Source: a virus (taxonomy: Duplodnaviria > Heunggongvirae > Uroviricota > Caudoviricetes). From it: DNA of 20,197 nucleotides. Location: IMG/VR virus record IMGVR_UViG_2541047960_000002, one strand, 5' to 3'. Shown here one piece after another: positions 14,389 through 20,197 of this stretch. Below the pieces are notes generated by a model. The model made no database searches. It was not told where the DNA came from and worked only from the letters and a program-made list of their open reading frames with translations. Numbering within the stretch: the first letter of the stretch is position 1; every line of letters begins with the position of its first letter. A program made the translations under genes and the position numbers.

Positions 14389-14988
14389 TTATGCATTAAG
14401 AAGGGTCAAAAGACGCTCACGCGCCATTCGTTCGTTAACAGCTTTCTTCAGCGCACCACTCGCCCGCGCTTCCTGCCAGGCTTTCATTGAGCGGACACCA
14501 GAGTCTGCGTCCTGATAGGCCGGATATGTCACCGGGCTGACGTCATACAGACGAGAAATGCGCGTGATTTCCCGGATAACAATCCCCTCGTCGTCTTCAT
14601 ACCAGCTCTCTCCGTCACGGGCGACACGAAACGCGAACGAGGACTGATTAATGTCACCACGCAACATTGGAGACAGCACCAGGTCACAAATAGTCGGAGT
14701 ATCCGGTGCAACAATGTCATAACGTAAACCGCGTTCATCCACCGACAATGACAACGTGCCGGCAGAACTTCGTCCGAGAATGAAATTAGGATCATGATTA
14801 AACAAGCCACGTACATCATCATTCAGTACATCATCAAAAGCCCCCGGCTTGATGATTTCACGAAGTCCCCACAGAGGTTCTGAACGACTGTTAAATACCG
14901 AGCCATACCCCAGAATGTGGGTCGGGGCATTATCATATTGTTCCGCCCGCACCTCCCCGCTGTAACAGCGCGTTTCACGGTCATTCAT
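14389..14988 (-). CDS. Prohead maturation protease (HK97 gp4 / S78 family)
   Basis: 199 aa between portal and capsid genes; ATG overlaps the portal stop (ATGAATGA). Confidence 0.88.
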   Translation of the reverse strand: MNDRETRCYSGEVRAEQYDNAPTHILGYGSVFNSRSEPLWGLREIIKPGAFDDVLNDDVRGLFNHDPNFILGRSSAGTLSLSVDERGLRYDIVAPDTPTICDLVLSPMLRGDINQSSFAFRVARDGESWYEDDEGIVIREITRISRLYDVSPVTYPAYQDADSGVRSMKAWQEARASGALKKAVNERMARERLLTLLNA

Positions 14989-16207
14989 CGTTCTTTTCCT
15001 CTTTGCCTTTCGTATCTTTAAAGTTATTCAACGGATTTGCTGCATTTACGCTGACCAGCATTTCATCCAGACCGTCAACCGGGTTCATATCCTCAAATGC
15101 CCTGGCTTCATTCCGACTCATCCAGCCATCTGTAATGGCAAAGTGATAGAACTGCGCACGCTCCTGTGGGGTCCCACGGAGCAACCCCGTGAGGTTGAAA
15201 CGAACGTAATACCCGGCAGCCCGTTCTGTACGGGTAAACAGGCGACGGTTAAGCTCCTGCTCCCAGTTCGCAACCCAGGGCATCATCGTGTAGCGAACAA
15301 ACTGAATCGCCTGCTGCGTAATATTCGAAAATGTGGCTTTTTCCAGGTCATTAATCATGTGCGCCGGGACATTAAAAATCCCGGCAATCATCGACCGGTT
15401 CAGCTTGGTCATATCAATGATCTGAGCATCCACCGGAGAAACTGTCAGAGCGCGGTAATCCAGTTGCGCAGGCAGCAACATGGTTTTATTTTCCTGGCTG
15501 CGAAGCGCTGTCACCGCCCGCTGCCACATATTCTTGAGCCTGCCCCAGCTTTGTTCGTTCAGTTCATTTTTCACAGAAATAATACCGGCAGGACGGGCAT
15601 TACCGTTAAAAAAGGCGCTGGTATACTGCTGGCCACTCATTCCCATACCAATGGTTTCAGCATGCTGCATGATCGGGCTCAGTCCCATTTTCTGATTGTT
15701 TCCCAGCGCCCTGATATGGATCATGTCGTCCGGACTTACCGCAAATGCACCCTCTTCGTTATACACCCCGTAAGTATGACGCCCACCGGTGTTAAGTAAC
15801 GTGGTTTCCCATGGCATACAGCATTCAAGGCTGGTAACCTCTCCACGACGATTACGTTTTACCCACGTATAACCATTGCCCCACCCCAGCACATGACGCT
15901 GCTTCAGTTCCCGCCACTTATAGCTGGTCTGCCAGGCATTAGGTTCATCATGAACGAGCCAGAACAACGGATGATCGCGTGCCGGCTGAACATGCTCATT
16001 CGTTTTTCGCATCACATGCAGGGGCATCTGAGCCACACTGGATGAAATAACATAAATACAGGCATAGACAGCAGCCAGCTTCATGGATGTTTCCGGACTG
16101 ACATACACATCCCGGGCAAAAATATTATCCGTCTCAGCGGCCTCTCCGGTTACCGGAACCGAGGGATTTTCCAGAGGCTCACTGCGAAACAGAGCATCAA
16201 GAAGCAT
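14981..16207 (-). CDS. Portal protein (HK97 family)
   Basis: 408 aa, ATG start, positioned between the large terminase and the prohead protease. Confidence 0.93.
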   Translation of the reverse strand: MLLDALFRSEPLENPSVPVTGEAAETDNIFARDVYVSPETSMKLAAVYACIYVISSSVAQMPLHVMRKTNEHVQPARDHPLFWLVHDEPNAWQTSYKWRELKQRHVLGWGNGYTWVKRNRRGEVTSLECCMPWETTLLNTGGRHTYGVYNEEGAFAVSPDDMIHIRALGNNQKMGLSPIMQHAETIGMGMSGQQYTSAFFNGNARPAGIISVKNELNEQSWGRLKNMWQRAVTALRSQENKTMLLPAQLDYRALTVSPVDAQIIDMTKLNRSMIAGIFNVPAHMINDLEKATFSNITQQAIQFVRYTMMPWVANWEQELNRRLFTRTERAAGYYVRFNLTGLLRGTPQERAQFYHFAITDGWMSRNEARAFEDMNPVDGLDEMLVSVNAANPLNNFKDTKGKEEKNDE

Positions 16208-16337
16208 GTTTTCTCCTCATGGACACCACCAGTGCATAAAGCAGCAACAAACAGCCCGACAGCATCAGAGACGCTGGCAGACCTGCATACAGATAAACGC
16301 CAGCAGTGAGCAAACCGAAACCGATCAGCCCGGTCAT
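16197..16337 (-). CDS. Hypothetical small membrane protein (46 aa) between large terminase and portal; candidate only
   Basis: Hand-translated ATG-initiated ORF: MTGLIGFGLLTAGVYLYAGLPASLMLSGCLLLLYALVVSMRRKHAS, with two hydrophobic stretches and a basic C-terminus; fills an otherwise unexplained 147-nt gap and its stop overlaps the portal ATG. No clear Shine-Dalgarno; below the ORF track length cutoff. Confidence 0.3.
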   Translation of the reverse strand: MTGLIGFGLLTAGVYLYAGLPASLMLSGCLLLLYALVVSMRRKHAS

Positions 16338-16354
16338 ATCAGTAATAAGCTGTT

Positions 16355-18112
16355 TCACAGAATTAACAGGTCCTCATCAGGATCAAGCGTGGACAGAAAG
16401 TCATTCACGCCCCCTCCATTTACCAGAAAGCGGCTCATGGCTGTAAAAAGCGCAACAGGGCCGTCGATTTTGGCTTCCGGCGTGGATTTATTCGGGAAGA
16501 TGTTGTCGTTTTTGTCCGGTTTTACAGTAACGTTAGACATCATCCAGTTCATGACCGGATGATTGCTGTGATGGAAACGCCCGGCATAAACCAGTGATTC
16601 CGTTTCCTTCATGGCCTCTGACAGATTGCGGACCGTCTGCGGAACCTCCACCAGCGGTATCCCTTCTTCAGCCAGTGCCAGGCTGAACTGCATTGCGCTC
16701 CACGGGTCAAATCCCAGTTCCCTGAGGTTTTCACCGCCAATCCATTCCAGTAAGTCACTTTTTATCTGAGCATGATCGATAACATCACCATCCGTCAGGA
16801 TGAGCTTATCCATCTCCGCCCACTTCCGGTAAAGTTCTGCCTGCTGCCGCGAGCATCGTTCCAGCCGTCCTTCCGGAAGCCAGAATTTAAAATCAGCATG
16901 AACATGTCCGTTATCGGTTCGCCAGAGTTTTGCCGCCGCACAGATATCAATCTTATGAGCAAGGTCGACGCCGACCCACATGGGATATGTTTTCAGCTCA
17001 TGTTGTGGAGCAATGTATTCGCACTTCTCCCACTTAATCATATCCATCCAGGCAGATTCGGCAGTGACCCACACATTCATGTGTTTGGTAAAAAAATTCA
17101 CCCGCGCAGAGACCTGCTCCTTCGCTTTTTTCGCCAGACGACGCAGATCATCCCAGCGTTTACAGATGCCCAGGCCAGGATTCGCTTTCTGCCAGACCGT
17201 TTCATCAAACGGATCATCTCCCTCATCAAGCGTGTAAATGATCGCAAAGTAAGAGTCGTCTTTTACAGCGCCCTCCACGTCGCTGTTATAGCCTCGCAAT
17301 ACCTTGATGGCGTAATCACGCTGCTCGTAACAAATCCCTTCCTTGTTAAAGCCAGCCGTGGTGATACCAAATAACAGGGACTGCAGACGGGCACCGGTTG
17401 CCGTTTCCAGAACGTCCCACACGTCGCGGGTTTTATGTGCATGCAGCTCATCAATAATGGCGCAGTGGATGTTCAGACCGTCCAGGTTGTTTGCATCCGA
17501 GGAAAGCGGTTCAAATTTTGATGCGCTCTGCTCCTGGTAAATCGCCAGCTTGTTGAAATCAAACAACCGCCCGAGTGTCGACCGGGCTTTTCTGACCATA
17601 TTTTTGGCGTCTTCAAACACGATTCTGGCCTGGTCACGCGTGGTTGCGGCTGAATACACCTCAGCTCCGCCTTCACTATCTGCCCCCGTCATATACAGGC
17701 CGATACCCGATGACAGTGTTGATTTTGCGTTTTTACGGGCGACTTCGTTGTACGCCGTCCGGAACCGGCGCACCATCACCGGACGTCCGCTGCCATCGCT
17801 GCGCATGACAACTTCCCCGGTTTCTTCATTGACCAGCGGAATGACAAAACCAAAAATATTAATGAGGATAAATACATGCCAGTCCATCAACTCAATGGGC
17901 TGGCCTGCCAGTGCCCCTTTTACATGAGGCACAAATTTGTAGAAATTCAGGATGTGCTGCGCACGGGGTTCACTGAAATAAATCCCCCGCTTTTCGCCGT
18001 ACTTCAGATCATCAAGAAAACGCTGGCAGGCCAGGCGGACAAATTCGCCAGCAACAATTTCTCCTGCAACAACACGTTCGGCGTAGCGGATCCCGTCAGC
18101 CACTTTTGCCAT
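16355..18112 (-). CDS. Terminase large subunit (Terminase_1 / HK97-type)
   Basis: 585 aa; ATG overlaps the small terminase stop (ATGA); followed by portal, protease and capsid genes in the HK97 order. Confidence 0.93.
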   Translation of the reverse strand: MAKVADGIRYAERVVAGEIVAGEFVRLACQRFLDDLKYGEKRGIYFSEPRAQHILNFYKFVPHVKGALAGQPIELMDWHVFILINIFGFVIPLVNEETGEVVMRSDGSGRPVMVRRFRTAYNEVARKNAKSTLSSGIGLYMTGADSEGGAEVYSAATTRDQARIVFEDAKNMVRKARSTLGRLFDFNKLAIYQEQSASKFEPLSSDANNLDGLNIHCAIIDELHAHKTRDVWDVLETATGARLQSLLFGITTAGFNKEGICYEQRDYAIKVLRGYNSDVEGAVKDDSYFAIIYTLDEGDDPFDETVWQKANPGLGICKRWDDLRRLAKKAKEQVSARVNFFTKHMNVWVTAESAWMDMIKWEKCEYIAPQHELKTYPMWVGVDLAHKIDICAAAKLWRTDNGHVHADFKFWLPEGRLERCSRQQAELYRKWAEMDKLILTDGDVIDHAQIKSDLLEWIGGENLRELGFDPWSAMQFSLALAEEGIPLVEVPQTVRNLSEAMKETESLVYAGRFHHSNHPVMNWMMSNVTVKPDKNDNIFPNKSTPEAKIDGPVALFTAMSRFLVNGGGVNDFLSTLDPDEDLLIL

Positions 18113-18740: not shown

Positions 18741-19091
18741 TCAATTGATGCGTTCGCGCGCTGTTTTTGCTTTATGACAGGGCCAGCACAGACTCTGCAG
18801 GTTACTGTCTGCATCTGTGCCACCATGAGCTTTCGGAATGATGTGGTCCACAGTTCTGGCTTCAACGGCTCTCCCATTGCGCAGGCAGTTCTGACACAGA
18901 TGATTATCACGCTTCAGTATGCGCGCACGTATGGCATCCCATTTCGAACCATAGCCACGCTGGTGGCGACTCAGTCCTCGTTGATGCTGTACCCATCCTT
19001 CGCCACGATGTTTATCGCAGTAACCAGAACTGTCTGTGGTTGTTCCTGCACATCCACGCTTACGGCAGGCACGTGGGATTAGTGATGGCAT
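18741..19091 (-). CDS. HNH endonuclease (terminase-associated)
   Basis: 116 aa with Cys-rich N-terminus (CRKRGCAGTTTDSSGYCDKH) and HNH motif (DHIIPKAHGGTDADSNLQSLCWPCH); ATG with GAGG; immediately upstream of the small terminase. Confidence 0.9.
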   Translation of the reverse strand: MPSLIPRACRKRGCAGTTTDSSGYCDKHRGEGWVQHQRGLSRHQRGYGSKWDAIRARILKRDNHLCQNCLRNGRAVEARTVDHIIPKAHGGTDADSNLQSLCWPCHKAKTARERIN

Positions 19092-19133: not shown

Positions 19134-19598
19134 CTACTTAATGCACTGAGTGCGGATATACTCCTGTGCCCCTTCCAGTTGCATCTGCATCGTCATCAGC
19201 CGCTCTCTGAGGGTGAAATAATCCCGTTCAGCGGTGTCTTCCAGTCGGGGGCTGGTTGCATTATCCACGCCGGAGGCGGTGGTGGCTTCACGCACTGACT
19301 GACAGACTGCTTTGATGTGCAACCGACGACGACCAGCGGCAACATCAGCGCGCAGAGTTTCATTTTCAGCTTTCGCATTGGCTAATTCTCTCGAGTACTT
19401 TGCATCGAGCGCAGCAACATCACGCTGACGCTGCTGCATGTCAGCGATGGTGGCGATCGCCAGCTTCAGCTCACTGACTTTTTTATCACGCTGTTCTTTG
19501 TAGGCGATGGCGTTATCACGGTAATGATTGACCGCCCACGACAGGCAGACGATGATGCAGATAACCAGAGCATAAATAATCGCGGCGACTCTGCTCAC
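19134..19598 (-). CDS. Rz: i-spanin Rz
   Basis: N-terminal transmembrane segment ([20 protein letters not shown]) followed by charged coiled-coil sequence; contains an embedded Rz1 in another frame; start placed at a GTG overlapping the endolysin stop (GTGA), the track start being a TTG 5 codons upstream. Confidence 0.85.
19196..19378 (-). CDS. Rz1: o-spanin Rz1 (outer membrane lipoprotein), embedded in Rz in a different frame
   Basis: [60 protein letters not shown] closely matches recalled lambda Rz1: lipobox VVGC and a proline-rich stretch; ATG start. Confidence 0.88.
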
Positions 19599-19996
19599 TG
19601 ATCTATCCCCCAACAGGCTAATGCGCTTTCCTGGTCACGACGAATAACCTGTCCATAGCAGTTATTTGAACGTATGCGGCAATCGCGCCCACCATCTATT
19701 ATCCACCAGCGAATCGCCTCGCATGCGCCCTTACGATCACCGGCATTCAGCCGCTTATAAAACGTCGACGGAAAACACTTACCGGGGCCAATGTTATAGG
19801 GACAAAATGACGCGATACCCGCTTTTTGTGGTTCAGTCAGTGGTACTTTAATATTGCGCTCCACCCATGCCAGCGCCTTATCACGCTCAATGGCGTTGAC
19901 CTGGTCGCATTTTTCCTTCGACAGTTTCATACCGGGAAAAACGGGTTTTCCATCCACCATCGTGGCACCCCGACAGATGGTCCAGATGCCGGACCC
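19595..19996 (-). pseudogene. Endolysin (T4-type lysozyme, GH24; RrrD/P21 R-like), 5'-truncated by an IS insertion
   Basis: The C-terminal ~133 codons resemble the recalled RrrD/P21-type lysozyme (GIWTICRG...NIGPGKCFPSTFYKRLNAGDRKGACEAIRWW). Upstream of 19996 the reading frame runs into the IS terminal sequence, so the native N-terminus (membrane anchor and catalytic Glu/Asp region) is missing from this locus. Confidence 0.82.
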
Positions 19997-20197
19997 TGAA
20001 CCGCCCCGGGAATCCTGGAGACTAAACTTCCTGAGAAAGAGGTAAACAGGATGACTAAAAATACTCGTTTTTCCCCCGAAGTCCGTCAACGGGCAGTCCG
20101 TATGGTTCTGGAAAGTCAGGGCGAATATGACTCACAATGGGCGACAATTTGTTCCATTGCCCCAAAGATTGGCTGTACACCGGAGACTCTGCGTGTC
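19997..20197 (+). mobile_element. IS3-family insertion sequence (IS629-like), left end; continues past the window edge
   Basis: Terminal sequence TGAACCGCCCCGGGAATCCTGGAGACTAAACTTCC begins at 19997 with the TG typical of IS3-family inverted repeats, followed by an orfA-like gene; abrupt loss of endolysin homology at this point. Confidence 0.8.
20051..20197 (+). CDS. IS3-family transposase OrfA, N-terminal part (helix-turn-helix), partial
   Basis: ATG at 20051; translation [49 protein letters not shown] matches the recalled IS629/IS1203-type OrfA N-terminus. Truncated by the window, so absent from the ORF track. Confidence 0.8.

Follow-up and report, generated by a model that had tools for sequence, protein, structure and literature searches.

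A conserved small gene in the terminase-portal slot of an SfV-like, HK97-type prophage and its predicted membrane-hairpin product

Introduction

In phage lambda, the gene for gpW occupies the slot between the genes for terminase A and the portal protein B, and the C-terminus of the large terminase subunit is the region that binds the prohead (portal). In Microbacterium phages, many open reading frames (ORFs) are carried at the junction of the genes for the large terminase subunit (TerL) and the portal protein (PMC7302621). In phage T4, the viral chaperone gp40 is required for the portal initiator (gp20) to assemble on the inner membrane (PMC9958956). In the e14 prophage of Escherichia coli K-12, the gene ymfR lies between truncated terminase and portal genes, a gene order also given in PMC11541549; ymfR rises with the other e14 genes under SOS-inducing treatment (PMC10012262), and an overexpression screen included YmfR among its many membrane-protein clones (PMC10299036). 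The present analysis concerns a small gene in the TerL-portal slot of a 20,197-nt stretch of Caudoviricetes DNA (IMG/VR record IMGVR_UViG_2541047960_000002), which as a whole is called the window; all genes of its terminase-portal part lie on the minus strand. A first-pass annotation, made from the sequence alone, had noticed part of this gene as an unannotated hydrophobic ORF that could be a small membrane moron, or nothing.

A protein-coding gene between TerL and portal

The first-pass annotation described an ATG-initiated ORF of 46 codons in an unusual gap of 147 nucleotides (nt). The ATG at 16337 indeed opens a 46-codon frame that encodes exactly the quoted peptide and is closed by TGA at 16199..16197. 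The stop was thus placed correctly, and the start seven codons short: the frame is open for 7 codons beyond that ATG, to a GTG at 16358..16356, which is the start codon, and the 53-codon product begins MKQLITDMTGLIGFG. The distance from the TerL stop to the portal ATG is 147 nt (16208..16354). Since the GTG overlaps the TerL stop codon (TGA, 16357..16355) and the 3′ end of the small gene overlaps the portal gene, there is no intergenic gap between TerL and portal, and the supposed gap vanishes. The remark that a Shine-Dalgarno (SD) sequence was missing concerned the internal Met at codon 8, not the true start; the GTG has no well-spaced SD, and a GAGG sits 13 nt upstream of it. The proposed coupling to the portal gene was upheld, although the stop does not lie on the portal ATG and the real overlap is 11 nt. 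The GTGA overlap supports termination-reinitiation coupling with TerL, and the small gene would in turn be translationally coupled to the portal gene.

A 53-codon open frame is expected by chance in random sequence at about (61/64)^53 = 0.08 per frame; the ORF alone is therefore not significant, and the case for a gene rests on conservation. The portal alignment was used as the anchor for collecting homologous loci, because the small-protein alignment held no stretch conserved enough for a back-translation search. This gave 171 loci with a portal identity of 48-100%, drawn from species-representative genomes, IMG/VR and GenBank phages; their hosts include many Enterobacterales, Pasteurellaceae, Halomonas, Marinobacter, Pseudomonas, Ralstonia, Aeromonas and Vibrio. 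The small-protein profile matches the ORF immediately upstream of the portal gene in 168 of the 171 loci, and 166 of these copies are intact; the two disrupted ones belong to an endosymbiont genome and to a phage record with a frameshift. The check for frameshifts or stops in relatives, which the first-pass annotation had proposed, thus favours a gene. Among 162 intact homologues, the start codon is ATG in 133 and GTG in 29, a 4-nt overlap with the TerL stop (mostly ATGA) is found in 135, and the overlap with the portal start measures 11 nt in 100 and 4 nt in 24. Three divergent members located independently of the portal all show the order HNH-TerS-TerL-x-portal-protease-capsid, x being the small gene.

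The substitution pattern is likewise that of a coding frame. For 73 unique 53-codon genes, the median ratio of nonsynonymous to synonymous substitution rates (dN/dS) is 0.28 in the ORF frame versus 0.97 and 1.9 in the shifted frames; codon-position entropy follows the order 3 > 1 > 2, and the other five frames carry stops in relatives. These patterns indicate that the 53-residue product is under purifying selection, which is confined to the ORF frame and rules out the suggestion that the ORF might be nothing. On this conservation, it is nearly certain that 16197..16358 (minus strand) is a genuine protein-coding gene; the small ORF noticed at first is a real gene that was hidden by the length cut-off of the ORF track.

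Two other candidates in the region were set aside. A non-coding RNA was dropped, as the region matched no Rfam family and its RNA folding was nothing unusual (z = -0.54). A 159-codon antisense ORF at 16083..16562 on the plus strand, which runs across the small gene and both adjoining gene ends, was judged spurious, the reverse frames being closed in relatives.

Several individual loci deserve mention in their own right. In the record of Halomonas phage QHHSV-1, a frameshift interrupts the small gene; this copy is a pseudogene, or else the sequence contains an error. The chromosome of Symbiopectobacterium purcellii MEX contains five copies of the head module, with the small gene in all of them, and the related endosymbiont Ca. 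S. endolongispinus has a copy of the head module in which the small gene is disrupted. Synechococcus phages Ssp-JY37 and Yong-L1-251 carry the small gene together with a portal 60% identical to the E. coli one; their modules most resemble those of Halomonas prophages, and the recorded Synechococcus host is an odd assignment.

Organization of the locus

The features of the small gene and its two neighbours are as follows.

16197..16358, minus strand: small gene, 53 codons plus stop, MKQLITDMTGLIGFGLLTAGVYLYAGLPASLMLSGCLLLLYALVVSMRRKHAS (ORF listing)
16355..16358, minus strand: GTGA, the start codon of the small gene over the stop codon of TerL (sequence)
16335..16337, minus strand: ATG taken as the start in the first-pass annotation, internal codon 8 (family alignment columns)
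16284..16349, minus strand: helix 1, predicted transmembrane (TM) segment 1, residues about 4-25 (AlphaFold2, column statistics)
16221..16280, minus strand: helix 2, predicted TM segment 2, residues 27-46 (AlphaFold2, Kyte-Doolittle)
16200..16220, minus strand: basic C-terminal tail MRRKHAS, predicted cytoplasmic (family tail charge)
16213..16218, minus strand: SD of the portal gene, GAGGAG, within codons 47-49 of the small gene and 5 nt before the portal ATG
16197..16207, minus strand: 11-nt overlap of the 3′ end of the small gene with the 5′ end of the portal gene (sequence)
16355..18112, minus strand: terminase large subunit, 585 aa (Pfam TerL_ATPase and TerL_nuclease)
16358..16408, minus strand: acidic C-terminal tail of TerL, VNDFLSTLDPDEDLLIL (last ~17 residues)
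14981..16207, minus strand: HK97-family portal protein, 408 aa (Pfam Phage_portal, E 3e-100)

The late operon runs in the order endolysin, Rz, HNH, TerS, TerL, small gene, HK97-family portal, S78 protease and major capsid, followed by Ad1, Hc1, neck, tail terminator, major tail protein and chaperone, the canonical order for the late genes of a siphovirus. The portal shares 83% identity with the SfV portal, and the head module is of the SfV-like kind. The small gene is read as part of the late structural operon of this SfV-like, HK97-type prophage. The HNH endonuclease gene (18741-19091, minus strand) lies just upstream of TerS, an arrangement typical of HK97-like cos-packaging phages, and the HNH-TerS-TerL order is seen again in distant loci that carry the small gene.

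Public records and database matches

The description of the ORF as unannotated did not hold, since the 162-nt coding sequence is already present in GenBank phage records and in RefSeq as a hypothetical protein; the gene is catalogued, though uncharacterised. It is annotated in this way in Escherichia phages Evi (VUF53252.1) and vB_EcoS-689R5 (URC08916.1), among others. The region was found in 634 of 5426 complete RefSeq E. coli genomes, and the feature in each listed record is a hypothetical protein. The product matches phrog_7105 (PHROGs v4, function not assigned) over its full length (E 9.4e-20, residues 1-52 against profile positions 1-52 of 52), and the weaker matches to phrog_502, labelled “membrane protein” (E 1.3e-6), and phrog_4810 rank behind it. 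Scans of the small protein and YmfR against Pfam, NCBIfam and PADLOC gave no meaningful match, and a sequence search of the PDB with the family profile gave none. A Foldseek search of the AlphaFold2 model against BFVD and the PDB returned only generic helical pairs with E > 2, which are uninformative at 53 residues. A single-sequence search of 1.84 billion representatives yielded just 20 matches, because a 53-residue query cannot reach high bit scores; the family-profile search reached 163 protein clusters.

Two records are of interest for annotation. In one database protein of 131 aa, a single case, the small protein runs in frame into the portal N-terminus, probably through a 1-nt indel near the overlap. 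The SfV record NC_003444 contains an intact small gene that is unannotated, and its portal start is placed 48 nt too far upstream.

Predicted structure of the product

The first-pass description, a small protein that has two hydrophobic segments and ends in a basic tail, is supported by the ORF translation, the family alignment columns and the AlphaFold2 helices. The AlphaFold2 run, made with the family alignment of 105 sequences, gave helices at residues 2-25 and 27-50 that fold back at G26, with a mean predicted local distance difference test score (pLDDT) of 88.9 and a value of about 90 for helix 1. M1, D7 and G20 are invariant in the family, and G10, L11, G13, F14, G15, L23, G26, L31, G35, A42, L43 and A46 are nearly so. 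Position 8, the Met taken at first as the start, is V, T or L in most members and is not conserved. Helix 2 is clearly hydrophobic, with a Kyte-Doolittle 19-residue mean of up to 1.97. The tail after residue 46 holds on average 3.5 Lys or Arg residues and has a net charge of +3.1, and the net charge of the N-terminus is 0.

By this model, the product is probably an inner-membrane helical hairpin with a tight Gly turn. The Lys/Arg-rich C-terminal tail leads to the prediction of a hairpin with both ends in the cytoplasm, and by the positive-inside rule both termini are likely to be cytoplasmic. In such a hairpin, D7 would sit opposite the first Arg of the tail.

The DNA of the tail appears to serve two functions. 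An SD-like purine run is present in 103 of 115 unique homologous genes, and the Arg codons of the tail are the rare AGG or AGA in 134 of 212 cases. As the ribosome-binding site (RBS) of the portal gene is encoded within the basic tail, protein charge and SD constrain the same bases.

Linkage to the portal and to the TerL tail

Among 70 non-redundant loci, chosen by portal similarity, the identity of the small protein correlates with that of the portal at a Spearman coefficient of 0.76 (partial 0.74) and with that of TerL at 0.30 (partial 0.11). By these identities, the divergence of the small gene follows the portal and not TerL. The same pair of small gene and portal adjoins TerL bodies of only about 38% identity, and the small gene is quite probably part of the portal module.

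Two phages help to place the border of this module. The TerL of phi467 is at least 97% identical to that of the window over 560 residues and then, from about 19 codons before the stop, continues with a tail of the phiP27 type; YmfR and a portal likewise of the phiP27 type come next. In SfV, the TerL body is of a different kind, yet the tail motif is that of the window, DFLS-LDPD-DLLIL. The phi467 mosaic and the SfV tail motif therefore point to a co-inherited unit of TerL tail, small gene and portal. They suggest that the last ~17 codons of TerL contain a recombination boundary and that the tail matches the portal. If the lambda enzyme with its portal-binding C-terminus is taken as a model, and on that analogy alone, the small gene would lie between sequences that encode two partners in an interaction.

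Moron, holin and cargo in the TerL-portal slot

The proposal of a small membrane moron was not sustained. Across 15900..16900, no promoter-like or terminator-like site was found on the minus strand. The GC content of the small gene is 0.50-0.51 against 0.45-0.58 in the flanking windows, which is no anomaly. The gene overlaps its neighbours and is present in 168 of 171 head modules. A moron in the Hendrix/Juhala sense was rejected accordingly, as the gene has neither its own promoter and terminator nor a deviant composition, and its occurrence is not sporadic. A class II holin or pinholin was also rejected. The endolysin and Rz genes lie at 19134..20089, upstream of HNH and TerS and about 3 kb from the small gene, which is thus outside the lysis cassette; it has no holin match in Pfam or PHROG, and Met8, which would provide a dual start, is not conserved.

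The slot itself varies among relatives. Because close and distant relatives do without the small gene, it is dispensable for HK97-type heads in general, as judged from these genomes. In sampled Gram-positive HK97-type phages (Staphylococcus, Bacillus and Streptococcus), no equivalent hydrophobic gene was found in the slot. In Streptococcus phage phiGBSVK-A, the slot contains genes for a Doc toxin and for a small acidic soluble protein, and an ORF that overlaps the toxin gene from upstream may encode an antitoxin. Going by such loci, the TerL-portal junction can accept unrelated cargo in Gram-positive relatives. The Lactococcus-phage family DUF1056 may occupy a similar position, which is a lead only.

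The YmfR family in the same slot

A second set of small hairpin genes is found at the corresponding position of other head modules. The phiP27 protein L37 (a curated membrane protein), an ORF of phi467 and ORF03 of Yersinia phage P840 encode hairpins of 60-63 residues that match phrog_502. On one side these genes adjoin TerL, and on the other a portal that shares just about 29% identity with that of the window. A DNA search identified the phiP27/phi467 form with ymfR of E. coli K-12, in the e14 prophage. The ymfR form occurs in 1373 of 5426 complete E. coli genomes, and all 80 viral contigs examined have the YmfR-type gene flanked by TerL upstream and the portal gene downstream. The rise of ymfR together with the rest of e14 under SOS-inducing treatment (PMC10012262) fits late or lytic expression of this sister gene. 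Alignment of the two family profiles with hhalign gave a probability of 88.9% (E 2.4e-6, 46 columns), a score that is inflated by hydrophobic composition.

Proposed function and alternative explanations

The explanation that we favour, with a probability of roughly 0.4 that is set by its weakest step, the membrane accessory role, is that the product assists head assembly from the inner membrane. The hairpin would be made in step with TerL and the portal and, at the inner membrane, would act as a portal accessory by nucleating or holding the portal or the prohead initiator; alternatively, it would dock the packaging motor there. A role as a membrane-anchored accessory of the portal, of prohead assembly or of packaging, similar to T4 gp40, is offered tentatively, on the strength of that analogy. 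T4 gp40 is the only precedent that we can name for such a membrane step, gp40/gp20 of T4 being so far the only documented case of membrane-linked assembly. A wider version of this explanation, in which a whole branch of HK97-type phages (SfV-like, and phiP27/e14-like via YmfR) would use a dedicated two-helix inner-membrane tether or nucleator of portal, prohead or motor, encoded between a portal-binding TerL tail and the portal, extends the analogy further and is rather unlikely.

Several points weigh against the membrane accessory. The parallel with gp40 involves no claim of sequence or structural relationship, T4 does not have an HK97-type siphovirus module, and the gp40 gene is not known to lie next to the T4 portal gene. 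HK97-type heads are not known to need a membrane step. Helix 1 is Gly-rich and of borderline hydrophobicity (19-residue mean about 1.1-1.5), membrane insertion is a prediction, and the embedded portal RBS explains part of the conservation of the basic tail. TerL is joined directly to the portal without the small gene in mEp235, Pm34, OS31, Vibrio 1221, Bacillus Fah, Serratia PhooPhighters and Pandoraea prophages, the last with a portal 57% identical. The hhalign score that links YmfR to the product is inflated by composition, and in the literature on YmfR, phiP27 L37 and small membrane proteins between terminase and portal, no functional study was found, YmfR appearing only in gene lists. Physical linkage, together with a recombination hotspot at the 3′ end of TerL, may be all that lies behind the co-inheritance with the portal, and the correlation was drawn from loci selected through the portal.

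Of the alternatives, the one that survives best is a stand-alone late membrane effector with a target in the host envelope and no part in head assembly. Its action might be to keep out the DNA of superinfecting or re-adsorbing phage, in the manner of HK97 gp15 or T4 Imm, to time lysis, or to perturb a host membrane protein, and it would sit next to the portal gene only since the junction tolerates insertions. A small protein with two TM segments and a basic tail has the shape of many exclusion proteins and holins. The related phrog_502 has the category label [quoted passage not shown], several lineages do without the gene, and the junction takes unrelated cargo, as in the Doc cassette of phiGBSVK-A and in Microbacterium phages (PMC7302621). 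An insertion of this kind, however, fits poorly with a gene that is near-universal in its lineage and keeps its overlaps with both neighbours across genera. There is no GC anomaly, and the gene has no promoter or terminator of its own; expression from a repressed prophage, as in exclusion morons, is therefore not expected. PADLOC, holin Pfam families and PHROG holins gave no match, and the lysis genes (endolysin and Rz, 19134..20089) are separate. We consider a late effector doubtful.

In a second alternative, the ORF is a translational coupler, a short bridge whose translation carries ribosomes over from TerL to the portal gene and fixes the ratio of the two, the peptide being a by-product. 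Its start and stop overlap both neighbours, the SD of the portal gene lies inside it, and its true start has no well-spaced SD (GAGG 13 nt upstream), all of which would suit such a bridge. The constraint, however, acts at the level of residues, as seen in the dN/dS of 0.28, the invariant D7 and G20 and the six conserved glycines along the two helices. Relatives couple TerL and portal by direct overlap without any bridge, and a separate family of the same fold, YmfR, is kept in the same slot. A mere coupler is accordingly improbable.

Slightly less probable still is a virion or ejection protein, packaged with or near the portal and helping DNA to cross the inner membrane. In favour of this are the place of the gene among the head genes, its co-inheritance with the portal, and the precedent of small head proteins that other phages eject, such as gp6.7 of T7. 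Beyond position, however, there is no signal for such a role; a 53-residue double-hydrophobic peptide would insert into the membrane of the producer cell, no virion proteome listing the small protein was found, and fold searches were uninformative. Finally, the possibility that there is no gene, only a chance frame in a conserved non-coding spacer or conservation of nucleotides alone, could appeal to the length of the frame, which is not rare by chance (about 0.08 per frame), and to the lack of a Pfam or NCBIfam family, but it is scarcely credible given a frame open in 166 of 168 loci of divergent DNA from Enterobacterales to Ralstonia, Halomonas, Aeromonas and Vibrio, a substitution pattern specific to that frame, and a region with no RNA family and no unusual fold.

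Significance and comparison with known systems

As a sequence feature, the small gene is an ordinary, annotated hypothetical gene. It is also among the most position-faithful uncharacterised genes of a very common E. coli prophage head module, and its counterpart in E. coli K-12, ymfR, resides in a host with easy genetics. The present analysis adds strict synteny, frame-specific selection, the link to YmfR and co-inheritance with the portal and the TerL tail. If the membrane link to portal assembly or packaging is true, a step would be added to the HK97-type assembly pathway; if the product instead acts as a membrane effector late in infection, the gene would exemplify an accessory gene, other than a moron, that has become fixed within a structural operon.

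Compared with what has been catalogued, phrog_7105, URC08916.1 and VUF53252.1 represent the same gene, identical or near-identical, with 53 aa and the same position and overlaps, and no differences separate them from it. YmfR shares with the product a length of about 60 aa, two hydrophobic helices, a tight turn, a charged C-terminal tail and the TerL-portal slot. The two families differ in their signatures: YmfR has a YPPAG turn and CLxWSW in helix 2, whereas the family of the window has D7, GLxGFG, YLxFG and G35. The protein of the window does not carry the YmfR signature, having LPAS at the turn and LLLLYAL in helix 2, and the invariant columns differ. YmfR-type genes follow the TerL stop after a short spacer (11 nt by annotated coordinates) in place of the 4-nt overlap. 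Because of the differing signatures, the gene of the window is not filed as YmfR; a remote relationship, or at least a positional and structural equivalence, is probable from these comparisons.

The gpW gene of lambda shares the slot, and gpW is a soluble head-completion protein, whereas the product described here is hydrophobic, with predicted TM helices, and no profile match to gpW was found for it in the Pfam and PHROG scans. Exclusion or moron proteins of the HK97 gp15 type are similar in being small phage inner-membrane proteins (a predicted property here) encoded within a structural operon; they differ in having their own promoter and terminator, deviant composition and sporadic spread, none of which the gene of the window shows. 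The likeness to T4 gp40 is proposed as a working analogy, in which the small protein would be a phage factor that links portal assembly to the inner membrane.

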